Source: Escherichia coli (GTDB lineage Bacteria; Pseudomonadota; Gammaproteobacteria; Enterobacterales; Enterobacteriaceae). Taken from it: a stretch of DNA of 64,000 bases. Below, one piece after another: positions 3,568 through 64,000 of this stretch; position 1 is the stretch's first letter, and every line of letters begins with the position of its first letter. The position numbers and the translations under genes were made by a program. The stretch is taken from assembly GCF_044324785.1 (NCBI RefSeq), contig NZ_CP172127.1. One strand, given 5' to 3'. The notes under the pieces were generated by a model. The model ran no database searches and was not told the DNA's origin. It was given only the letters and a program-made list of their open reading frames with translations.

Positions 3568-4470
3568 CTAACCACCCGTTTTCAGGCAATATTCGGTCGT
3601 AGCGTGGCGTTCGATCCAGCGGATCATTTTACCCGCGATGTCGATACCGGTGGTTTTTTCTATTCCTTCCAGCCCCGGCGACGCATTCACCTCCATCACC
3701 AACGGCCCGCGATTAGCACGCAGAATATCCACACCAGCAACGTCCAGCGCCATCGTTCGCGCGGCTTTTATCGCGATTTCACGCTCCTGTGGTGTGATAC
3801 TGGCGACGCTTGCCGCGCCGCCACGATGCAAATTGGAACGAAAATCGCCCTCTTTCGCCCGCCGTTCAATCGCAGCGACCACTTCATCCCCAACAACCAG
3901 GCAGCGGATATCGCACCCTTGCGCCTCTTTGATATATTCCTGCACCAGAATATGCGCGTTCAGACCGCGAAAGGCGTCAATCACGCTTTCCGCCGCCTGA
4001 CGCGTCTCCGCCAGCACGACACCAATTCCCTGCGTACCTTCAACCAGCTTAACCACCAGCGGCGCACCACCGACCATGTCGATTAAATCGCTGGTATCAT
4101 CCGGCGAATGCGCAATGCCCGTGACAGGCAGGTCGATGCCCTGACGCGCCAGCAGTTGCATGGAACGCAATTTGTCACGCGCCCGGGCAATGGCGACCGA
4201 CTCATTGAGCGGATAGCTCCCCAGCATCTCGAACTGGCGCAGTGCCGCCGTCCCATAAAAGGTAATGGCGGTGCCAATACGCGGGATCACTGCGTCAAAA
4301 TGGGGTAACTTGCGGCCTTTGTAGTGAATAGAAGACGCCGCAGGATTTATGTTCATGTAGCAAGAAAGCGGATCAAGAATTTCAACCAGGTGACCGCGCT
4401 GTATAGCGGCTTCACGCAGCCGCTTACACGAATAGAGCGTTCCATCCCGGGACAATATGGCAATTTTCAC
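3568..4470 (-). CDS. rimK: Ribosomal protein S6 glutamate ligase RimK (300 aa, GTG start)
   Basis: ORF translation (M)[26 protein letters not shown]... is an ATP-grasp protein matching RimK; GTG at 4468-4470 complement. Confidence 0.93.
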
Positions 4471-4530
4471 CCTGCACCTCTCTGTCAGACCTGGTCAAAA
4501 GCCCGCGTATCATACATCGATGTGGCGGTT

Positions 4531-21109: not shown

Positions 21110-23458
21110 CTACTCTTTTACTAATTTTCCACTTTTATCCCAGGCGGAGAATGGCATGGGTTTCTGGTACAGATACCCCTGAGCCTGAACACATCCTAAT
21201 TTGATTAATTCGCGCGCAACGTCTTCGCTCTCTACGCCTTCCGCAATCACCGGGATCCGGTTATAGCGTGCCAGATCGAAAATAATGCGCACAATTTTTC
21301 CCGCAGTACCGAAAATATCGCCGGTAAATTGCGAGTCCACTTTTATGCTATCTGGATTAATTTCATAAAAACGTTTCAGGTTTGACAAACCGGTGCCAAA
21401 GTCATCAATCGATATCCGTACCCCTTGTTTACGCAGTTGTTCAATATTGAGATAAAAATGTTCATTAATTCGCTCGATCACGGTTTCAGTGATCTCAACA
21501 CAGAGGCTGTTCGCCTTCAGGCCATTTTCTTTCATGATGGTGGTAAAACGCTCATGAAAGTGCGGTTCGTTTAACTGCCAGGGCGAAACATTAATATGCA
21601 GTAAGAAATCATCCTTCAGCGATGCACGCTGACTAAAATGTCTGAATTCACCCATTGCCGTTTTAATAATCTGATAACCCAGCTCATTGATAAACCCGAT
21701 ATCTTCAGCAATGGTAATGAACTTCAGCGGTGAAATGATCCCCCGCTCCGCAGACACCCAACGGCACAACGCCTCCGCGCCCAGAATGGTGCGGGTGTTA
21801 ATATCAACGATCGGCTGATAGACCAGGAATAGTTCGCCAATTTCCATTGCATGGCGAATATTACGCGCAATCCAGATATTCTCTTCTATTTCGTTGAGTT
21901 TCGCGTCATCACAGAAAATAAACTCGGAGAACATATGATCACGGATACTGGAAATCGCCAGTTTCAGTTTTTCTGCGTAACTCCAGGCGTTTTCTCCCTG
22001 CAAAGGTTCACAAATGGCAGACTTATGGATGCGCAGATTGCGGTAGCCAAAGCTGCTGTCAAAATCGTTTACCATCGCTATTTTACGGGTAAATGTCTGT
22101 ACATTTTCCCGGCACAGAAGTAAATAGAGATCGGCATTAAATGTCACGATATCGCAGCATTGCGCATATTTCTCGGCAATTCGCTGACACAATTTCCTGA
22201 CGATTTTATTGCGTTCATCAACACCAAACACCGCTTCCACGGCTTCCAGACCACACAGTTTGATGATCCCCACAGCCAGATACTGATTATTGTTGGACTC
22301 AATAATCGCCATATTTTTAATAAAACCGCTTTCCTGATCGTAAGAGATCAGTGAGAGCAATTTATTTGACCGTTCAATTTCGGCATCTTTCATTTCCGCG
22401 ATCGAATTTTTGATGCTGATAATCTCTTTCGCATCGCCTTCGCGAATTTTCAGAGCCTCGATTTGATCCGTTGAGTCAGGCAAAAACGCCAGCGTATTAA
22501 CCAGCTCTGTCATTTCAGAAAATTGCCGACGGAACACACGAGTGGTCATTAAATAAACCACCAGCAATACGATAATAATGAAAGCAAACGGCAGATAAAA
22601 AAGTTTATCTGATGCGTTCAATAAATTACCACCAGGATAATAAAAATAGATTTCGAATAATGCGTTGTTTGGCACCGCTGATGTTTTTTCGATATATTCA
22701 GTATCGACAGAATCAATAATATTATAATTACCTTCGCTATTATAAATAATTAGTTTTTCACGAGCGAGTTGATTCTTGGCAATGATCTCATGGCCTTGTT
22801 TTAAAAATAGAACTTCATCATTAGCGCTGATTTGATCAAGATACTAGTTCAGATATCGCCAGTTTAAATCGACATGAATTTTATCCACCGCTAACAAATC
22901 GTGATCTTTGCCGTTGATGTGTAGCGTAAAAGAGATACATTTTTTACCCGGACGATCAAAGCAATTGTATGCCGGATTCCAGCTGTTGTTAGAGTCATCT
23001 GAAGCCATCGACCACGGTCGTTTCGATGGGTTAAAATCGGCAAAAATAACCCGCCCTGACTCGTCGACAAGCGGTCCATTTACTTGTTCCTGATGATAAA
23101 CAACGATTTTATCATTCGCCCTCCGCGAAAAAAGATAATATTTATTATCATCAAGTACCAGTCCCACCGAGTCTAAAAATGGCATCATTTCCATTTTAAG
23201 AATCACGGCGCGTTGAATCTCCTCTGTATTTTTTAATAAATACAGTGAGTCCTTTAATGTCAGGGCCGAACGTTCAATATCTTTAAAGAAATAGCCAACG
23301 TTTTTCTGAATAAGTTCAAAGCGGCTATCGGCACGTTTTACCGCGCGCTCCGATACCAGTTGATAGTTAATGATGAAAAAAAGACCAATAAATGACAGTG
23401 CTGCCAATAAAAATAAAATTATCAGCCTTATCTTTATCTTTTCGTATAAACTCAGCAT
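21110..23458 (-). pseudogene. pdeI: c-di-GMP phosphodiesterase PdeI (YliE, 782 codons) interrupted by an in-frame TAG at codon 205 (complement of 22844-22846)
   Basis: ORFs 22844..23536 and 21110..22675 are in the same frame and separated only by one amber codon (coding strand ...CTG AAC TAG TAT CTT...); read through, the length is exactly 782 codons from MLSLYEKIKIRL, matching intact PdeI; the EAL domain lies entirely downstream of the stop. Confidence 0.75.
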
Positions 23459-36419: not shown

Positions 36420-37235
36420 ATGAGCGTAAAAGTTATCGTCACAGACATGGACGGTACTTTTCTTAACGACGCCAAAACGTACAACCAACCACGTTTTATG
36501 GCGCAATATCAGGAACTGAAAAAGCGCGGCATTAAGTTCGTTGTCGCCAGCGGTAATCAGTATTACCAGCTTATTTCGTTCTTTCCTGAGCTAAAGGATG
36601 AGATCTCTTTTGTCGCGGAAAACGGCGCACTGGTTTACGAACATGGCAAGCAACTGTTCCACGGCGAACTGACCCGACATGAATCGCGGATTGTTATTGG
36701 CGAGTTGCTAAAAGATAAGCAACTCAATTTTGTCGCCTGCGGTCTGCAAAGTGCATATGTCAGCGAAAACGCCCCCGAAGCATTCGTCGCACTGATGGCA
36801 AAACACTACCATCGCCTGAAACCTGTAAAAGATTATCAGGAGATTGACGACGTACTGTTCAAGTTTTCGCTCAACCTGCCGGATGAACAAATCCCGTTAG
36901 TGATCGACAAACTGCACGTAGCGCTCGACGGCATTATGAAGCCGGTTACCAGTGGTTTTGGCTTTATCGACCTGATTATTCCTGGCCTGCATAAAGCGAA
37001 TGGTATTTCGCGGTTACTGAAACGCTGGGATCTGTCACCGCAAAATGTGGTAGCGATTGGCGACAGCGGTAACGATGCGGAGATGCTGAAAATGGCGCGT
37101 TATTCCTTTGCGATGGGCAATGCTGCGGAAAACATTAAACAAATCGCCCGTTACGCTACCGATGATAATAATCATGAAGGCGCGCTGAATGTGATTCAGG
37201 CGGTGCTGGATAACACATCCCCTTTTAACAGCTGA
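36420..37235 (+). CDS. ybiV: Sugar phosphatase YbiV (SupH), HAD/Cof family, 271 aa
   Basis: [51 protein letters not shown]...; paralogous to YbjI in this same window; the upstream ORF-track extension from 36189 is rejected. Confidence 0.9.
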
Positions 37236-48835: not shown

Positions 48836-50419
48836 ATGAATTTAACCCTCAAAGAATCGCTTGTTACCCGTAGCCGGGTATTTAGCCCGTGGACTGCGTT
48901 CTACTTTTTACAGTCGCTATTAATTAACCTCGGCTTAGGTTATCCCTTCAGTTTGCTCTACACCGCTGCGTTTACGGCTATTTTGCTTTTGCTATGGCGA
49001 ACATTGCCTCGCGTACAAAAAGTTCTGGTCGGTGTCAGTTCGCTGGTGGCGGCTTGTTATTTCCCTTTTGCTCAGGCCTACGGCGCGCCTAATTTCAATA
49101 CATTGCTGGCATTGCACTCCACCAATATGGAAGAGTCGACCGAAATCCTGACGATTTTTCCGTGGTACAGCTACCTGGTCGGCTTATTTATTTTTGCGCT
49201 CGGCGTAATAGCAATCAGGCGAAAAAAAGAGAATGAAAAAGCGCGCTGGAATACCTTCGACAGCCTGTGTCTGGTATTCAGTGTGGCGACATTTTTTGTT
49301 GCTCCCGTGCAAAACCTGGCCTGGGGCGGCGTATTTAAACTGAAAGATACTGGCTATCCGGTATTTCGTTTTGCTAAGGATGTCATCGTCAATAATAACG
49401 AGGTGATTGAAGAGCAAGAACGGATGGCAAAACTGTCCGGAATGAAAGATACCTGGACGGTCACTGCCGTTAAGCCGAAATATCAGACTTATGTGGTGGT
49501 GATCGGTGAAAGCGCGCGTCGCGATGCCCTCGGTGCCTTTGGCGGTCACTGGGACAATACCCCGTTTGCCAGCAGCGTTAACGGTTTGATATTTGCTGAC
49601 TACATTGCCGCCAGTGGCTCCACGCAGAAATCGCTTGGCTTAACGCTCAATCGCGTAGTCGATGGCAAACCACAGTTTCAGGATAACTTTGTCACCCTGG
49701 CAAATCGCGCGGGCTTCCAGACCTGGTGGTTTTCCAACCAGGGCCAAATCGGCGAATACGATACCGCCATCGCCAGCATCGCCAAACGTGCAGATGAAGT
49801 GTACTTCCTGAAAGAAGGTAATTTTGAAGCAGATAAAAACACGAAAGACGAAGCGTTACTGGATATGACCGCTCAAGTGCTGGCACAAGAGCACTCGCAA
49901 CCGCGGCTGATTGTTCTACATCTGATGGGCTCACATCCGCAGGCCTGCGACCGGACACAAGGCAAATACGAAACCTTTGTGCAATCGAAAGAAACGTCGT
50001 GCTATCTCTATACCATGACGCAAACGGACGATTTACTGCGCAAGCTGTACGATCAGTTACGCAACAGCGGCAGCAGCTTCTCGCTGGTTTACTTTTCTGA
50101 CCACGGTCTGGCTTTTAAAGAGCGCGGCAAAGACGTGCAATACCTTGCCCATGATGATAAGTATCAGCAAAATTTCCAGGTGCCTTTTATGGTCATTTCG
50201 AGCGACGATAAAGCGCATCGGGTGATTAAAGCCCGCCGCTCAGCCAATGACTTCTTAGGTTTTTTCTCCCAGTGGACGGGAATTAAAGCGAAGGAAATTA
50301 ACATCAAATACCCGTTTATATCTGAGAAGAAAGCCGGGCCGATATACATCACCAACTTCCAGTTACAGAAGGTAGATTACAACCATCTCGGAACCGATAT
50401 TTTCGACCCGAAACCTTAA
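48836..50419 (+). CDS. opgE: Phosphoethanolamine transferase OpgE (YbiP), 527 aa
   Basis: N-terminal TM segments plus C-terminal sulfatase-like domain; length and position match OpgE. Confidence 0.85.
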   Translation: MNLTLKESLVTRSRVFSPWTAFYFLQSLLINLGLGYPFSLLYTAAFTAILLLLWRTLPRVQKVLVGVSSLVAACYFPFAQAYGAPNFNTLLALHSTNMEESTEILTIFPWYSYLVGLFIFALGVIAIRRKKENEKARWNTFDSLCLVFSVATFFVAPVQNLAWGGVFKLKDTGYPVFRFAKDVIVNNNEVIEEQERMAKLSGMKDTWTVTAVKPKYQTYVVVIGESARRDALGAFGGHWDNTPFASSVNGLIFADYIAASGSTQKSLGLTLNRVVDGKPQFQDNFVTLANRAGFQTWWFSNQGQIGEYDTAIASIAKRADEVYFLKEGNFEADKNTKDEALLDMTAQVLAQEHSQPRLIVLHLMGSHPQACDRTQGKYETFVQSKETSCYLYTMTQTDDLLRKLYDQLRNSGSSFSLVYFSDHGLAFKERGKDVQYLAHDDKYQQNFQVPFMVISSDDKAHRVIKARRSANDFLGFFSQWTGIKAKEINIKYPFISEKKAGPIYITNFQLQKVDYNHLGTDIFDPKP

Positions 50420-58034: not shown

Positions 58035-58960
58035 CGCTGGCGATTGACAAAACGGCGGCGCTGCTCGTCGTTCATAAAGGTCCAGGCAATAAAGCGACTC
58101 TGCTTTTGCCCCTGGGCCATCTCTTTTTTAACCACCTTCACCGCGCCCACGTCCGTCAGGGCACGATACAACGGCGGTAAGTTTTCACCACGAGATACCA
58201 GTGAGGTAAACCACATCACCTGCTTCGCGAAGCCTTTGCTCTCTTCAATCATCTTTTTGATAAAGGTGACTTCACCGCCTTCACACCACAACTCCTGTTG
58301 CTGGCCGCCAAAGTTCAGTGCATCGTCTTTGTTTAGCCCCAGGTTACGGCGTTTACGTTCACTACCTGCCCGTGCCGCAGCGGCGGAATCGTGGAATGGC
58401 GGGTTACACAAGGTCGCGTCGTATTGCTCGTTTTTATGGATGATGCCGTTAAAAATCGCCCCACTCTCTTTTTGCCGACGCAGACGAATGGCGCGGTTAA
58501 GCCCCGGATTAGCACTGATGATCGCCTGCGCACTGCTTAACGCCTGGCTGCTGGTTTCACTACCAGTAAAACGCCAGCCATATTCATGTACGCCAATCAG
58601 CGGGTAAATACAGTTCGCACCAACGCCGATATCCAGAATGCTGGCATTAGCTGGAATTGTTCCGCTTGCTTCTGCCAGTAAATCGGCAAGGTGATGAATA
58701 TAATCCGCCCGGCCCGGTACTGGTGGGCAGAGAAAACCGTCGGGGATATCCCAGTTCGCTACGGCGTAAAAATGGGCCAGCAACGCCTTATTGAGCGCCT
58801 TCACCGCCAGCGGATTGGCAAAGTCTACGCTTTGCTCCCCGGCGGGTGTAAGCGTGAGGAATTGCCTGAGTTCAGGATTGACCTGACAAAGCGTGGCGAG
58901 ATCGTAGCGGCTGTGATGACGGTTGCGCGGATGCAACCCCGGTTTCTGGGCGGACATAGC
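58031..58960 (-). CDS. rlmF: 23S rRNA m6A1618 methyltransferase RlmF (YbiN), 308 aa
   Basis: ORF from [34 protein letters not shown] with the SAM-binding NPPF motif (LCNPPFHDS). Confidence 0.88.
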
Positions 58961-59232
58961 ATTCTCCTTTAAGCAGCGGCGTAAGATACCCGCATAACGC
59001 GACAGGGTAAATATCTGGCTGCGTTTATCATTCCCCAAAACCTTAACATGGCTATGGTTTATGGCAATTCATCATAAAAATCAGCATCATGCATTTCATT
59101 GATTTGTCTTATTTTGTAAAAATATATCGTTCAAAAAATAAGCACATCTCTGTCAATTTTTTGCGTCATTTTCATCGCCCAGGCGACCTACACTTATCAG
59201 GCACTACCCGTTGTATTTATGAGGATGTCATT

Positions 59233-59493
59233 ATGAAAAAGTGCCTCACACTACTGATTGCCACCGTCCTGAGCGGAATCTCTCTCACGGCTTATGCCGC
59301 GCAACCGATGAGTAACCTGGACAGCGGTCAGCTACGGCCCGCCGGTACCGTTTCGGCAACTGGCGCATCAAACCTAAGCGATCTGGAGGATAAACTGGCA
59401 GAAAAAGCGCGCGAGCAAGGCGCGAAAGGTTATGTCATTAATTCCGCAGGCGGAAATGACCAGATGTTCGGTACTGCAACCATCTACAAATAA
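59233..59493 (+). CDS. mcbA: McbA (YbiM), small periplasmic DUF1471 protein, 86 aa
   Basis: MKKCLTLLIATVLSGISLTAYAAQPMSNLDSGQLRPAGTVSATGASNLSDLEDKLAEKAREQGAKGYVINSAGGNDQMFGTATIYK; paralogous to YbiJ in the same window. Confidence 0.82.
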   Translation: MKKCLTLLIATVLSGISLTAYAAQPMSNLDSGQLRPAGTVSATGASNLSDLEDKLAEKAREQGAKGYVINSAGGNDQMFGTATIYK

Positions 59494-59626
59494 CCCCACC
59501 AACGTAACTGCATTCGCCTCTGGATGCAGTTTTCGCCTGTTTTGTAATCAAAAAACATCAAATATGAACGCAATGTAAATAAATGTATTTCTTTTTCGCG
59601 CAATGGGTGATAGAAAATCGCGCCAA

Positions 59627-59657
59627 GTGATAATGCTTATCAAAATTATTATCACTT
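59627..59657 (+). promoter_or_regulatory. Fur box in the fiu promoter (gtgataatgcttatcaaaattattatcac)
   Basis: Matches the GATAATGATAATCATTATC Fur consensus in overlapping hexamers; fiu is an established Fur-regulated gene. Confidence 0.7.
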
Positions 59658-59757
59658 GCACGAACACTATCACGAGATTAACAGTGGCATCGCATCCGCA
59701 GAGAGGCTTTCTCGTGGCAGTGAAAATTTCAACATATAAGAAAAAGTCACCTGCAAA

Positions 59758-62040
59758 ATGGAAAACAATCGCAATTTCCCTGCCAGACAATTTCATTCGC
59801 TCACGTTCTTTGCCGGTCTTTGTATTGGCATCACGCCTGTGGCTCAGGCACTCGCCGCCGAAGGGCAAGCAAACGCGGATGACACGCTGGTTGTCGAAGC
59901 ATCAACGCCTTCGCTTTATGCGCCACAACAATCTGCTGATCCGAAATTCTCGCGTCCGGTAGCGGATACTACCCGCACGATGACGGTGATTTCTGAACAA
60001 GTGATTAAAGATCAGGGCGCAACCAACCTTACCGACGCGCTCAAAAACGTCCCCGGCGTGGGTGCGTTTTTTGCGGGTGAGAACGGTAACTCCACCACTG
60101 GCGACGCCATTTATATGCGTGGTGCCGATACCTCTAACAGTATTTATATTGATGGCATTCGCGATATCGGCAGCGTCTCGCGCGACACCTTCAATACCGA
60201 GCAGGTCGAAGTGATTAAAGGGCCGTCCGGCACCGACTACGGGCGCAGCGCACCGACGGGCTCGATCAATATGATCAGCAAGCAGCCGCGCAATGACTCA
60301 GGCATTGACGCCTCCGCGAGTATTGGCAGCGCCTGGTTCCGCCGCGGCACGCTGGACGTCAATCAGGTCATTGGTGATACCACTGCGGTGCGCCTGAATG
60401 TGATGGGTGAAAAAACGCACGATGCCGGACGCGACAAAGTCAAAAATGAGCGTTACGGCGTCGCCCCTTCTGTCGCTTTTGGCCTTGGCACAGCGAATCG
60501 TTTGTATCTTAATTATCTACATGTCACCCAGCACAACACGCCAGACGGCGGCATTCCGACCATCGGTTTGCCGGGCTATTCTGCCCCATCTGCGGGAGCG
60601 GCGGCCCTGAATCATTCCGGAAAAGTAGATACGCATAACTTTTATGGCACGGATTCCGATTACGACGATTCGACCACCGATACCGCTACCATGCGTTTTG
60701 AGCACGATATCAACGATAACACCACCATTCGCAATACTACCCGTTGGTCGCGCGTGAAGCAGGATTACCTGATGACGGCGATTATGGGCGGGGCGTCGAA
60801 TATTACCCAGCCCACCAGCGATGTGAATAGCTGGACCTGGTCACGCACGGCGAATACTAAAGATGTGAGTAATAAAATTCTCACCAACCAGACCAACCTG
60901 ACCTCGACGTTCTATACCGGTTCTATCGGTCATGATGTCAGTACCGGCGTGGAATTTACCCGTGAAACGCAGACTAACTACGGCGTTAATCCGGTGACGT
61001 TACCTGCGGTAAATATTTATCATCCTGACAGCAGCATTCATCCCGGCGGCCTGACGCGCAACGGCGCAAACGCCAATGGTCAGACGGATACCTTCGCAAT
61101 TTACGCTTTCGATACGCTGCAAATCACCCGTGATTTTGAGCTGAACGGCGGGATCCGTCTGGATAATTATCATACTGAATATGACAGTGCCACCGCCTGC
61201 GGCGGCAGCGGACGCGGTGCCATCACCTGCCCTGCTGGCGTGGCAAAAGGTTCTCCGGTCACCACCGTCGATACCGCCAAGTCGGGCAATCTGGTGAACT
61301 GGAAAGCCGGGGCGCTGTATCACCTGACGGAAAACGGCAATGTCTATATTAACTATGCTGTTTCCCAGCAGCCTCCGGGCGGCAACAACTTCGCCCTTGC
61401 GCAGTCTGGCAGCGGTAACAGTGCCAACCGCACCGATTTTAAACCGCAAAAAGCCAACACCAGCGAGATTGGCACCAAATGGCAGGTTCTGGATAAACGC
61501 CTGTTGCTCACCGCCGCGCTGTTCCGTACTGATATCGAAAATGAAGTTGAGCAAAATGATGACGGAACTTACTCGCAATACGGTAAGAAACGCGTCGAAG
61601 GCTATGAGATATCCGTGGCCGGGAATATCACTCCCGCGTGGCAGGTGATTGGCGGCTATACCCAGCAAAAAGCAACCATCAAAAACGGCAAAGATGTTGC
61701 CCAGGATGGTTCCTCATCGCTGCCGTATACCCCGGAGCACGCCTTTACCTTATGGAGCCAGTATCAGGCAACCGATGATATTTCCGTTGGTGCGGGCGCA
61801 CGCTATATCGGCAGTATGCATAAAGGTTCTGACGGCGCGGTGGGAACGCCAGCGTTTACCGAAGGTTATTGGGTCGCCGACGCTAAACTGGGGTATCGGG
61901 TTAATCGCAATCTCGACTTCCAGCTAAACGTCTACAACCTGTTTGATACCGATTACGTCGCCTCAATCAACAAGAGCGGCTACCGTTATCACCCGGGCGA
62001 GCCAAGAACCTTCCTGCTCACGGCCAATATGCATTTCTGA
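59758..62040 (+). CDS. fiu: TonB-dependent catecholate siderophore receptor Fiu (760 aa)
   Basis: Signal peptide, plug domain and beta-barrel ending ...[11 protein letters not shown] (C-terminal aromatic residue) match Fiu. Confidence 0.9.
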
Positions 62041-62047
62041 TTCAGAT

Positions 62048-62070
62048 GTGGGGCGCAGGCCCCACTTTTT
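62048..62070 (+). terminator. Hairpin between fiu and ybiX (gtggggcgcaggccccac + ttttt)
   Basis: Seen directly; probably a partial terminator inside the fiu-ybiX operon. Confidence 0.5.
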
Positions 62071-62081
62071 GGAGAACTTGT

Positions 62082-62759
62082 ATGATGTACCACATTCCCG
62101 GCGTGCTATCGCCAAAGGACGTCGCCCGTTTTCGCGAACAACTGGAACAAGCCGAATGGGTGGATGGACGCGTCACCACTGGCGCACAAGGTGCGCAAGT
62201 TAAGAACAATCAACAGGTAGACACCCGCAGCACGTTATACGCCGCCCTGCAAAATGAGGTGCTGAACGCGGTTAACCAACATGCTTTGTTCTTTGCCGCG
62301 GCCTTACCGCGTACCCTTTCCACGCCGCTGTTTAATCGCTATCAGAACAATGAAACCTATGGTTTTCATGTGGATGGCGCAGTACGCAGTCACCCACAAA
62401 ACGGCTGGATGCGCACTGACCTTTCTGCCACACTGTTTTTAAGCGATCCACAAAGCTACGACGGCGGCGAACTGGTCGTTAATGACACCTTCGGACAACA
62501 TCGGGTAAAACTCCCGGCAGGCGATCTGGTGTTGTATCCCTCCAGCAGCTTGCATTGCGTGACACCCGTAACCCGCGGCGTACGAGTGGCATCATTTATG
62601 TGGATCCAGTCGATGATCCGTGATGATAAAAAGCGCGCCATGCTGTTTGAACTGGACAACAATATTCAGTCGCTGAAAAGCCGCTACGGCGAAAGTGAAG
62701 AGATCCTGTCGCTGCTCAATCTTTATCATAATCTGCTGCGGGAATGGTCGGAGATCTGA
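62082..62759 (+). CDS. ybiX: YbiX, PKHD-type Fe(II)/2-oxoglutarate-dependent hydroxylase, 225 aa
   Basis: [34 protein letters not shown]... with an HxD...H iron-binding pattern; co-oriented with fiu. Confidence 0.85.
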
Positions 62760-62832
62760 CGCTTGAACTGCCCGAGTTCGTCCCTATATTAGCTACACTT
62801 AACTGTACAAGTATTGATATGGGGAGGACGAT

Positions 62833-63099
62833 ATGGCATCCGGTTGGGCTAACGATGACGCCGTCAACGAACAGATCAACAGTACAATTGAAGATGCGAT
62901 TGCCCGCGCTCGGGGTGAAATTCCGCGTGGTGAAAGCCTGTATGAATGTGAAGAGTGCGGCGCACCTATCCCACAGGCCCGTCGGGAAGCCATTCCTGGC
63001 GTGCGCTTATGCATTCATTGTCAGCAGGAGAAAGATTTACAAAAACCAGCTTATACAGGATATAATCGCAGAGGTTCGAAAGACAGCCAGTTACGTTAA
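62833..63099 (+). CDS. ybiI: YbiI, DksA/TraR-family C4 zinc-finger protein, 88 aa
   Basis: MASGWANDDAVNEQINSTIEDAIARARGEIPRGESLYECEECGAPIPQARREAIPGVRLCIHCQQEKDLQK with a CxxC...CxxC finger. Confidence 0.85.
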   Translation: MASGWANDDAVNEQINSTIEDAIARARGEIPRGESLYECEECGAPIPQARREAIPGVRLCIHCQQEKDLQKPAYTGYNRRGSKDSQLR

Positions 63100-63363
63100 C
63101 TACAACTGGCGGGATGTATAGCGAGTATAATTTGTATTTTGCGTGGCATTCCGTGCCTTTAACGCTGTCGTGACTGCCACGCTGCATAAAACAAGTCCAT
63201 AAGTTCAACAAATAAATGGATTATCAGTATGTTAGATATCAATCAATTTATTTGAACAAGGCGGTCAATTCTCTTCGATTTTATCTCTCGAAAAAAAACG
63301 TGATACTCATCACATCGACGAAACAACGTCACTTATACAAAAATCACCTGCGAGAGATTAATT

Positions 63364-63624
63364 ATGAAAACTATCAATACTGTTGTTGCTGCTATGGCTC
63401 TTTCAACTCTGTCATTTGGCGTGTTTGCCGCGGAACCGGTAACGGCATCCCAGGCACAGAACATGAATAAAATCGGCGTGGTTTCTGCCGATGGCGCATC
63501 CACCCTCGATGCCCTGGAAGCGAAACTGGCTGAGAAAGCTGCGGCAGCTGGGGCGAGTGGATACAGCATCACTTCTGCCACCAACAACAATAAATTAAGC
63601 GGTACTGCGGTAATTTATAAGTAA
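63364..63624 (+). CDS. ybiJ: YbiJ, periplasmic DUF1471 protein, 86 aa
   Basis: MKTINTVVAAMALSTLSFGVFAAEPVTASQAQNMNKIGVVSADGASTLDALEAKLAEKAAAAGASGYSITSATNNNKLSGTAVIYK. Confidence 0.85.
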   Translation: MKTINTVVAAMALSTLSFGVFAAEPVTASQAQNMNKIGVVSADGASTLDALEAKLAEKAAAAGASGYSITSATNNNKLSGTAVIYK

Positions 63625-63734
63625 TTCGTAAGCCGGATCAGTCGTTTACGCTACGTCCAGCACAAGTATTTCCCTGTCTGTTTGCCGACAGACGCATATG
63701 CTCTAACCCTCATTGATCCTATATTACCCTTGTT

Positions 63735-63762
63735 TGCCCGTCCGTTACTGGACGGGCTTTTT
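63735..63762 (+). terminator. ybiJ intrinsic terminator (gcccgtccgttactggacgggc + tttttt)
   Basis: Perfect hairpin plus T-run seen directly. Confidence 0.75.
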
Positions 63763-63765
63763 TGT

Positions 63766-64000
63766 GCACAGAAAACCCCCAGCTAGGCTGGGGGTTCCGG
63801 AAAGCTTTCAGCTTTGAGCCAGTTATTAAAACCCCTTTTGATTTGTTAAAACACCTTGCGGTCTGGCAACTGCAAGTGTCAAACAAGAAATCAAAAGGGG
63901 GTCCCAATGGGGGACGAAAAGAGCTTAGCGCACACCCGCTGGAACTGTAAATATCACATAGTTTTTGCGCCGAAATACCGAAGACTGGCGTTTTACGGAG
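63766..64000 (+). mobile_element. Left end of an IS200 insertion sequence (IS200/IS605 family), truncated by the window end
   Basis: Two hairpins characteristic of the IS200 left end (cccccagctaggctggggg, then a stem sequestering the RBS: ccccttttgatttgtt...aacaagaaatcaaaaggggg) followed by the tnpA start; IS200 is absent from K-12 as far as I recall. Confidence 0.75.
63907..64000 (+). CDS. tnpA: IS200 transposase TnpA (HUH Y1 transposase), N-terminal 31 codons only
   Basis: Translation MGDEKSLAHTRWNCKYHIVFAPKYRRLAFYG matches the conserved IS200 TnpA N-terminus. Confidence 0.8.
   Translation, partial: MGDEKSLAHTRWNCKYHIVFAPKYRRLAFYG

Follow-up and report, generated by a model that had tools for sequence, protein, structure and literature searches.

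The closest described system is that of Escherichia coli K-12, where fiu-ybiX(-ybiI) (b0805-b0803) belongs to the Fur core regulon. Receptor-oxygenase pairs of the same kind have been described outside the enteric bacteria. The pairing of cciT with cciO in Caulobacter crescentus, published in 2025, is likewise a Fur-regulated operon in which a Fiu/PiuA-type TonB-dependent transporter is followed by a YbiX-family oxygenase, and CciT function is strictly and specifically dependent on CciO (Hernandez-Ortiz et al. 2025, PMC12004947; PMC12004943). It differs from the E. coli locus in its transporter (Fiu is ~30% similar to CciT), in an sRNA annotated within the operon, and in having no ybiI. In Pseudomonas aeruginosa, piuA and piuC likewise set a catechol and siderophore-drug receptor beside a PKHD-type oxygenase, and loss of either gene raises the MICs of siderophore-drug conjugates. 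However, piuA-piuB and piuC-piuE are transcribed divergently as two operons, both with a Fur box of their own and without an attenuator hairpin, so that piuA and piuC are paired without being co-transcribed. For the element between the genes, the nearest parallels are the rplL-rpoB attenuator and the malE-malF REP, leaky intra-operon terminators or stabilisers in which a stem-loop likewise lies between co-transcribed genes and the distal gene is stepped down. The protein prolyl hydroxylases PHD2, Pseudomonas PPHD (which acts on EF-Tu) and OGFOD1/Tpa1 are also among the closest known systems.

The window analyzed here is a 64,000-nucleotide stretch of an E. coli chromosome, and the locus within it is, as a whole, the iron-starvation operon fiu-ybiX-ybiI, already known and stated as such in PMC12004943. 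Genes, order, 41-nt spacer, hairpin and Fur box are the same as in K-12, and the DNA of the locus shares 95–99% identity with 5,417 complete genomes of E. coli. Differences from K-12 consist of a few base changes (e.g., GGAGAACTTG in the window for GGAGAAATTG in K-12) and an IS200 element inserted downstream of ybiJ in the window strain. All four objects of a previous sequence-only reading of this DNA, i.e. a Fur box, the fiu and ybiX genes, the gap between them and a hairpin, were found where it had placed them (Table 1). The modest new detail is a conserved attenuator hairpin between fiu and ybiX, and we consider it very probable that the unit is served by one Fur-repressed promoter and a leaky terminator after fiu, with the outcome that the receptor would be abundant and the enzyme scarce. 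This layout bears on the reading of resistance mutations: cefiderocol and other siderophore-drug conjugates enter through Fiu and its homologues PiuA and PiuD, and resistance by loss of the partner oxygenase is emerging in E. coli as well as in P. aeruginosa.

Table 1 Features of the fiu-ybiX-ybiI locus, in window positions
Feature	Position	Strand	Evidence
Stem-loop 3' of mcbA, AACUGCAUUC/GGAUGCAGUU, then U-rich tail	59506..59531	+	-14.1 kcal/mol, z = -3.1
A/T-rich block aATGTAAATAAATGTATTTcTTTTT, nearly invariant, 5' of the -35	59572..59597	+	Invariant columns, 17 enteric genera (alignment A3)
Predicted sigma-70-like fiu promoter	59607..59634	+	Promoter scan, 9/12 match
Two adjacent 7-1-7 Fur boxes, TGATAATgCTTATCA and TCAAAATtATTATCA	59628..59654	.	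Motif matches, conservation, ChIP-exo
fiu, TonB-dependent catecholate receptor, 760 aa	59758..62040	+	NF007349, Pfam, RefSeq
Intrinsic-terminator-like element, stem and U5	62048..62070	+	Fold, Term-seq, conserved stem-loop
ybiX Shine-Dalgarno GGAG	62071..62074	+	Read from sequence; abuts the U-tract, 7 nt before ATG
ybiX, 225 aa, cytoplasmic Fe(II)/2-oxoglutarate oxygenase, PiuC/CciO family	62082..62759	+	Homologue conservation, structure match
TTGAAC-16-TATATT, promoter-like site between ybiX and ybiI	62763..62790	+	Promoter scan
ybiI, DksA/TraR-family C4 zinc-finger protein, 88 aa	62833..63099	+	NF008243
Stem-loop over the ybiI stop codon	63086..63122	+	Term-seq 3' end; weak fold, -9.8 kcal/mol, z = -1.3

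Fur control upstream of fiu

The stem-loop that follows mcbA is likely the terminator of that gene and would shield fiu from upstream transcription; in published RNA-seq data, mcbA was unchanged in a delta-fur strain while fiu was derepressed. Downstream of it, the predicted fiu promoter combines a -35 GTGATA (59607-59612), a 16-nt spacer and a -10 GATAAT (59629-59634), with both hexamers inside conserved blocks of alignment A3. The A/T-rich block next to this promoter could be an UP element or the site of some factor.

The sequence-only reading had proposed that Fur controls fiu from a clear box about 100 bp upstream, and had suggested a motif scan as a check. Two matches to the 7-1-7 motif TGATAATNATTATCA were identified at 59628-59642 (1 mismatch, 13/14) and 59640-59654 (2 mismatches, 12/14), i.e. 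104–130 nt upstream of the fiu ATG, and the window as a whole holds 5 such matches for 0.23 expected, a count obtained in none of 100 shuffles. The box is "clear" only under a 7-1-7 or hexamer model, since a search with the 19-mer consensus (up to 3 mismatches) found no site. The best 19-mer match at fiu is 15/19, within four overlapping matches spaced by 6 bp. Relative to the 19-mer the site is degenerate, and it appears only with the 7-1-7 motif or at a score of at least 13/19. Across nearly all intact enteric loci, a Fur box matching 12–14 of 14 positions is found at about -120 to -135, with a few loci carrying it elsewhere, between -45 and -201, and a single weak box (11/14, in L040); the control segments reached at most 11.

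Published data agree with this assignment, and the proposed Fur control is borne out by the boxes, by ChIP-exo and by derepression of fiu in delta-fur strains. Fur ChIP-exo yielded a single peak, located upstream of fiu and assigned to fiu-ybiX (MG1655) or to fiu, ybiX and ybiI (W3110 and W). Since the two boxes overlap the -10-like GATAAT, which lies 16 nt 3' of GTGATA and is conserved along with it, Fe-Fur bound there in iron-rich cells would block the single sigma-70 promoter; binding and derepression are observed, and the block is what the overlap suggests. Under iron limitation, transcription would begin near 59641, leaving a 5' UTR of ~116 nt, a start position estimated from the promoter hexamers.

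The hairpin and the expression step between fiu and ybiX

Both genes lie on the same strand, separated by 41 nt (62041-62081) rather than the 42 bp previously given. Within this spacer, 7 nt 3' of the fiu stop codon, GTGGGGC-GCAG-GCCCCAC (62048-62065) forms a stem of 7 bp, 6 of them G-C, followed by T5. The sequence-only reading had described this hairpin as weak and had taken the weakness as a sign of co-transcription, a line of reasoning which does not survive: the hairpin is strong (-14.4 kcal/mol, z = -3.7, no shuffle as stable), conserved and terminator-like, a 3' end has been mapped to it, and ~20% read-through would account for ybiX expression. Terminator-like matches as a class show no enrichment in the region (8 for 5.5 expected), and the U-tract is short. 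In K-12 Term-seq data, the primary RNA 3' end in M63 medium (839219) falls on the fifth U (62070), 30 nt after the fiu stop. The same sample includes a 3' end internal to ybiX, which indicates that transcripts do run past the hairpin, with read counts in this method giving no quantitative measure of termination efficiency.

Of 46 Enterobacterales loci, one is without fiu, and the spacers of the other 45 all retain the stem-loop; per-sequence folding revealed at least 6 distinct, fully complementary stems. In a covariance model (CM)-based alignment, 90% of cells were paired, vs. at most 61% with slid partners, and 4 of the 7 pairs change on both sides. As MAFFT and CM alignments force mutually offset stems into a single alignment, these formal covariation figures fall short of the picture obtained by folding each sequence separately. 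In Pseudocitrobacter, the hairpin position is taken by a REP element, and E. whittamii has a BIME in addition to the hairpin. The U-tract itself is poorly conserved, with 1–8 T in the 8–10 nt after the stem, and is poor in several genera (e.g., CCCTCC in Leclercia and TTGCAGG in Citrobacter), so that the stem may be conserved for something other than termination. Possibly, the hairpin is instead mainly an RNA-stability element, a barrier to 3' exonucleases which guards a processed fiu transcript while the distal part decays faster, as in the classical example of the REP between malE and malF. The far better conservation of the stem and the REP and BIME elements found in its place or beside it both favor this interpretation, which we nevertheless rate as rather unlikely: in E. 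coli, the 3' end coincides precisely with the final U of U5, as is characteristic of intrinsic termination. Stabilization and termination are compatible roles.

An expression step at the hairpin is seen in published delta-fur RNA-seq data. In MG1655, deletion of fur raised fiu from 38 to 1763 (log2 +5.47), ybiX from 9.9 to 381 (log2 +5.21) and ybiI from 22 to 185, with similar changes for fiu and ybiX in 8–9 strains; the values in delta-fur W3110 were 2355, 399 and 71. These describe a Fur-dependent staircase of 1 (fiu) to ~0.2 (ybiX) to 0.03–0.1 (ybiI). That carA and carB have similar scores at unequal lengths shows the values to be length-normalized, which puts the drop across the hairpin at 4.6- to 5.9-fold. 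That fiu and ybiX are co-transcribed, as proposed earlier, is supported by their ratio, which is the same under repression (0.26) and derepression (0.22). We infer from this step that ybiX is made by ~20% read-through of the hairpin, with the caveat that differential decay could mimic such a step in steady-state RNA. At 62070, where the K-12 3' end was mapped, the hairpin and U5 would terminate or stabilize the majority of transcripts, and about one transcript in five would continue through the ybiX Shine-Dalgarno located directly past the U-tract. Compared to the rplL-rpoB and malE-malF elements, that of fiu-ybiX is a minimal 18-nt hairpin abutting the downstream Shine-Dalgarno. A strong but leaky terminator which sets YbiX at about one-fifth of Fiu also means that an IS insertion or point mutations in the spacer can silence ybiX with fiu intact. 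Under cefiderocol selection, the mutant that reached the highest MIC carried both a cirA insertion and an ISKpn8 insertion in the fiu-ybiX spacer.

Alternatively, the hairpin could be a complete terminator, with ybiX and ybiI expressed from their own promoter(s) and responding to Fur through a separate site or indirectly. The strength and mapped 3' end of the hairpin fit this scenario, as do a sigma-S SELEX site between ybiX and ybiI, a weak Fur-like match (13/19) at 62715-62733, and the divergent P. aeruginosa piuC with its own putative Fur box. We consider it very improbable, given that the 41-nt spacer is too small for a promoter and that the sole Fur ChIP-exo peak is upstream of fiu, while ybiX derepression follows that of fiu at a constant ratio in 8 strains. 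An independent promoter, together with absence of read-through, had been named beforehand as the observation that would speak against co-transcription, and a scan of the + strand found no promoter-like site in the 1 kb upstream of ybiX, within the last 1 kb of fiu, with the proviso that a consensus scan is insensitive and a weak internal promoter could escape it. Selection of an IS upstream of ybiX alongside the cirA insertion further argues against separate promoters, and so do homologous pairs elsewhere, with genes 6–25 nt apart.

Two other roles for the spacer were considered. The end of fiu and its hairpin could be released as a 3' UTR-derived small regulatory RNA, which would explain stem conservation and would be in line with the stable 3' end, the terminator hairpin, and the sRNA gene CCNA_R0097 annotated in the Caulobacter cciT-cciO operon. 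This seems extremely doubtful: five U after the stem make a poor Hfq-binding tail, the bases 5' of the stem are conserved no further than coding constraint, and neither Rfam nor a literature search returned such an RNA. The Rfam scan, run over 58900-64000, gave a single match, the IS200-associated STnc490 downstream, and none to any known RNA family at fiu-ybiX. A clamp on the ybiX Shine-Dalgarno, i.e. translational coupling through pairing with the bases after the fiu stop, was rejected. In E. coli, the pairing probability of this site is 0.68 vs. 0.47 with shuffled flanks, but the 34 enteric sequences show no excess over shuffles (mean 0.55 vs. 0.58). The GGAG or AGGA motif itself is conserved in alignment A1.

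ybiI as the distal member of the unit

The single ChIP-exo peak and the delta-fur staircase together argue for one Fur-repressed promoter followed by a leaky terminator and a unit that reaches ybiI. The fiu-ybiX pair of the sequence-only reading is thus co-transcribed as proposed, and extends further than proposed, according to both delta-fur data and the transcription units of W3110 and W. Third in the Fur-dependent unit, ybiI is also its least expressed gene, with a log2 fold change of 3.0–5.3 in delta-fur strains and membership in the Fur-1 iModulon. Still fewer transcripts would arrive at ybiI than at ybiX, and this gene would also draw on its own sigma-S-type promoter: the site at 62763-62790 is a predicted secondary ybiI promoter, and Genomic SELEX placed a site for RNA polymerase with sigma-S (and with other minor sigma factors) between ybiX and ybiI. 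In LB medium, Term-seq mapped the 3' end of the ybiI transcript to K-12 position 838167, near window position 63122.

The receptor and its partner oxygenase

The Fiu protein matches the NCBIfam equivalog NF007349 over residues 1-760 with 1506 bits (cut-off 686), and includes the Pfam domains Plug (PF07715) and TonB_dep_Rec_b-barrel (PF00593) of a 22-strand barrel. Its translation includes what we take to be, from established knowledge of these motifs, a signal peptide ending in ...VAQALA/AEG, a TonB box (DTLVVEA) and a C-terminal aromatic residue (...NMHF).

YbiX is a predicted, typical Fe(II)/2-oxoglutarate oxygenase, as judged from its sequence and structural model, in agreement with the hydroxylase assignment of the sequence-only reading, which had suggested structural modelling as a check. 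Across 80 diverse homologues, the HxD...H metal triad (H96, D98 and H158) is at least 90% conserved, and R168, the ligand of the 2OG C5 carboxylate, is invariant. The model adopts a double-stranded beta-helix fold with a C-terminal PKHD_C helical hairpin and aligns to the PiuC crystal structures (9GHL, 9QN0-9QN4; 49–50% identity) with a TM-score of 0.93. A Fiu-like receptor was found directly upstream of the YbiX homologue, in the same order, in 77 of 80 genomes, and the pairing is as conserved as previously suggested: in a published survey, 87.7% of oxygenase genes adjoin a transporter, with the pairing broadly conserved (Hernandez-Ortiz et al. 2025, PMC12004947; PMC12004943). Among non-enteric pairs, the gap is at most 25 nt in 20 of 34 loci (6–25 nt). 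Four more distant YbiX-family representatives (37–43% identity) gave uninformative neighborhoods, as most of them lay on short contigs or in unrelated surroundings.

The earlier remark that the function of YbiX is not established still holds for its biochemistry, a matter already recognized and under active study, and genetic work from 2023–2025 shows that uptake through the partner receptor requires YbiX and its homologues. A delta-cirA delta-ybiX strain has a higher cefiderocol MIC than delta-cirA alone, a ybiX nonsense mutation confers resistance to a catechol-PNA conjugate, and piuC mutations are associated with siderophore-drug resistance in Pseudomonas. As the genetics of E. coli and Caulobacter shows, YbiX is specifically needed for uptake via its partner receptor. 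Since cefiderocol acts in the periplasm, and yet a cirA mutant that also loses ybiX has a higher MIC for it, YbiX would have to act on outer-membrane passage itself or remove a competing ligand, and not merely catabolize what is imported.

One candidate activity is that of a protein hydroxylase, with YbiX, PiuC and CciO marking the cognate receptor or another envelope-bound partner while it is still in the cytoplasm, prior to export, and the unmarked receptor being inactive. If true, this would explain the one-to-one genetic dependence, the gene adjacency, and how a cytoplasmic loss blocks periplasm-targeted drugs; it is also compatible with the nearest folds to YbiX after PiuC, all of which are protein prolyl hydroxylases, and with the observation that CciT protein is still made without CciO. 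We regard this activity as quite improbable. To our knowledge, most picocyanobacteria have no such TonB-dependent receptors. Homologues of piuC have been reported in picocyanobacteria, which counts against a protein hydroxylase, and so does a recurrent linkage in which the oxygenase is followed downstream by an FMN-dependent alpha-hydroxy-acid oxidase, pointing instead to small-molecule chemistry. This gene-neighborhood evidence on the oxygenase family is the sole lead that the window offers towards the biochemical role of YbiX.

Gene content and the Fur-controlled promoter

Of 5,426 complete E. coli genomes, 5,417 match the region 59494-62759 at 95-99% identity (best match 99.2%). RefSeq annotates it as fiu and ybiX, and the gene layout from mcbA to ybiJ is that of K-12 b0806-b0802 in opposite orientation. 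The DUF1471 paralogues mcbA and ybiJ bracket the fiu-ybiX-ybiI block, one on each side. An IS200 element is inserted after ybiJ, with its 5' end at 63774-63897 (Rfam STnc490, 146 bits) and a tnpA-like ORF from near 63907, and runs on to 64000; neither strain 19KM1831 nor K-12 carries an insertion here, and in them ybiE and hcxB come next.

Features of the fiu-ybiX region, with two oxidase genes from non-enteric loci
Feature	Position	Strand	Description
mcbA	59233-59493	+	DUF1471 (YdgH/BhsA-like)
fiu	59758-62040	+	760 aa; NCBIfam equivalog NF007349, 1506 bits; Plug and barrel domains
Hairpin GTGGGGC-GCAG-GCCCCAC	62048-62065	+	Seen in sequence
T5	62066-62070	+	Directly after hairpin
ybiX Shine-Dalgarno GGAG	62071-62074	+	7 nt before ATG
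ybiX	62082-62759	+	225 aa; NF003972; Pfam 2OG-FeII_Oxy_3 and PKHD_C
Promoter-like match	62763-62790	+	Promoter scan; upstream of ybiI
ybiI	62833-63099	+	DksA/TraR zinc finger
ybiJ	63364-63624	+	DUF1471 (YdgH/BhsA-like)
Oxidase gene, L049	5193-6290	as oxygenase	Next after YbiX homologue
Oxidase gene, L060	5152-6189	as oxygenase	Next after YbiX homologue

The sequence-only reading had placed a Fur box about 100 bp upstream of fiu, and the 7-1-7 motif TGATAATNATTATCA indeed matches at 59628-59642 (one mismatch) and 59640-59654 (two mismatches); the whole window holds five matches against 0.23 expected, a number reached in 0/100 shuffles. The proposed motif scan thus held for this model and for four overlapping 19-mer matches near fiu (13-15/19), whose 6-bp spacing is a hexamer-array signature, but not for the strict 19-mer consensus, which had no match with three or fewer mismatches. 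A promoter scan placed a -10-like GATAAT inside the first Fur box, 16 nt downstream of GTGATA, and in a 17-genus alignment the box and both promoter hexamers fall in invariant blocks. Across at least 40 enteric species the box scores 12-14/14, mostly ~120-135 nt upstream of fiu; a few lie elsewhere (-45 to -201), and a single locus (L040) reaches only 11/14; control segments score at most 11. The coordinates of a Fur ChIP-exo peak fit this box if they are numbered on the older K-12 scheme, which is offset from the current one. This single published peak was assigned to fiu-ybiX (MG1655) or to fiu,ybiX,ybiI (W3110, W).

Just upstream of the fiu -35, a nearly invariant block at 59572-59597, aATGTAAATAAATGTATTTcTTTTT, is shared by genera ranging from Escherichia to Serratia and Rouxiella. 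Two TGTA repeats lie 10 bp apart within the block, which may act as an UP element or bind some other regulator. Further Fur-like matches lie at 23134-23152 (15/19 to the 19-mer) and, for the 7-1-7 motif with two mismatches, at 37163-37177 and 50152-50166.

The spacer hairpin and read-through

The fiu-ybiX gap counts 41 nt rather than the 42 bp first given, and its hairpin, initially called weak, folds alone at -14.4 kcal/mol, was equalled by no shuffle and satisfies a simple terminator pattern, so that "weak" was wrong. For K-12 grown in M63 glucose, Term-seq data (Adams et al. 2021, supplementary file 1) put the primary 3' end of fiu at minus-strand position 839219; with K-12 fiu at 839249-841531, and thrL used to fix the 3'-end position within each listed sequence, this corresponds to window 62070, the fifth U in the tract. 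The same sample contains a 3' end within ybiX at +344 (window ~62425), and RNA therefore extends beyond the hairpin. Another ORF-internal 3' end, in the fiu signal-peptide region at +77 (window ~59835), may stem from premature termination or from termination that depends on an sRNA; PMC11979758 mentions control of Fiu by sRNA.

Published RNA-seq values (Gao et al. 2023, supplement "DESeq result") are length-normalised, as the similar scores of carA and carB show. For fiu, ybiX, ybiI, ybiJ and mcbA they are 38, 9.9, 22, 31 and 19 in wild-type MG1655, 1763, 381, 185, 75 and 26 in its delta-fur mutant, and 2355, 399, 71 and 32 (no mcbA value given) in W3110 delta-fur. The ybiX/fiu ratio is thus 0.17-0.22 derepressed and 0.26 repressed, which fits one origin with ~80% loss at the hairpin. 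These ratios, the lack of any + strand promoter-like site within 1 kb upstream of ybiX, the tracking of fiu by ybiX derepression in eight delta-fur strains, and an ISKpn8 insertion in the spacer that arose under cefiderocol selection together support the co-transcription first suggested, via a leaky terminator, in a unit that runs on into ybiI.

The zinc-finger (TraR/DksA-type) gene ybiI is Fur-dependent within what has already been termed a fiu-ybiX-ybiI operon (PMC12004943), and has a published sigma-S-type SELEX promoter site. A weak reverse-strand Fur-like match within the ybiX 3' end (62715-62733, 13/19), ~100 nt before ybiI and 30 nt before its promoter-like site, is probably due to chance. 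Loss of fur raises ybiJ a little (log2 1.2-3.1), as though some read-through extended that far, and leaves mcbA unchanged.

Conservation of the pair and its hairpin

A YbiX scan across 100,044 species genomes yielded 80 loci. In 77 of them (one decayed) the oxygenase gene is immediately preceded, in the same orientation, by a gene for a Fiu-like receptor; in two a single gene separates the pair, and the last, L042 (Tatumella sp. JGM91), lacks any Fiu-like gene within 4.5 kb; the pairing is therefore conserved as first stated, the published figure being 87.7%. Every Enterobacterales spacer contains a stable stem-loop, and the stems vary yet stay complementary (GTGGGGC/GCCCCAC, CGGGGCG/CGCCCCG, GGGGGGC/GCCCCCT and three distinct Tatumella stems). 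In a CM-based alignment, 90% of cells are paired against at most 61% with slid partners, and both sides change in 4/7 pairs. The U-tract is far less conserved than the stem, and a role as stabiliser instead of terminator therefore stays a live alternative. Earlier publications already describe the regulation by Fur, the operon and the conserved pairing. The initial finding is correct and known; what the present analysis adds is the spacer hairpin as a strong, phylogenetically maintained attenuator setting a ~5-fold step.

Among 34 non-enteric pairs, 20 are spaced by at most 25 nt; a hairpin is present in 10, in many cases with a T-run after it. In Escherichia sp. MOD1-EC7003 and E. whittamii (L002 and L003, both 4289-4500), a 171-bp BIME composed of two REP elements is inserted in the fiu-ybiX spacer and interrupts the original hairpin, and the full hairpin with T5 recurs just before ybiX; in Pseudocitrobacter (L019, L023, L024) a REP-like palindrome replaces the short hairpin. 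Citrobacter sp. Awk 4 (L041) has lost most of fiu and has a disrupted ybiX, with hairpin and ybiI retained. Across the 80 loci, ybiI occurs only in Escherichia, Citrobacter, Leclercia, Silvania, Klebsiella, Raoultella and Pseudocitrobacter (associated loci L021, L026-L029, L031, L033, L035-L046), and is absent from Kluyvera, Pantoea, Rouxiella, Serratia, Tatumella and every non-enteric locus, and is thus a late addition to the pair.

Oxygenase function and the oxidase neighbour

That YbiX function is not established, as the sequence-only reading held, is also recognised in published work. Cefiderocol MICs are higher for delta-cirA delta-ybiX than for delta-cirA, a ybiX nonsense mutation confers resistance to a catechol-PNA conjugate, and in Caulobacter CciO is specifically needed for CciT function, CciT protein still being produced without it (2025 cciT-cciO papers). 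In P. aeruginosa, piuC mutations are associated with higher siderophore-drug MICs; piuA and piuC are divergent there, making polarity on piuA unlikely. Since cefiderocol acts in the periplasm, we infer that the oxygenase must affect outer-membrane passage or ligand competition, beyond cytoplasmic breakdown alone.

In 13/34 non-enteric loci (L049, L051, L052, L054, L057, L060, L061, L064, L066, L069, L070, L071, L080; Nitrosomonas, Methylophilaceae, Burkholderiales, Aliarcobacter), the next gene, on the same strand, encodes an FMN-dependent alpha-hydroxy-acid dehydrogenase/oxidase and overlaps the oxygenase gene or begins within ~15 nt of its end. Five representatives match PF01070 (E-values 1e-107 to 1e-121), and the remaining eight were assigned through BLASTP clustering with them; three representatives fall below all NCBIfam equivalog cut-offs (LldD, lactate oxidase, MftD). 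The text of two 2025 Caulobacter papers (PMC12004947, PMC12004943) does not mention this neighbour, which hints at an alpha-hydroxy acid as a possible product of the oxygenase. Malate is bound in one PiuC crystal (9GHL), and the Methylophilus locus also carries PepSY_2 and cytochrome b561 genes. In E. coli, the hydroxycarboxylate dehydrogenase gene hcxB/ybiC lies ~1 kb downstream on the opposite strand.
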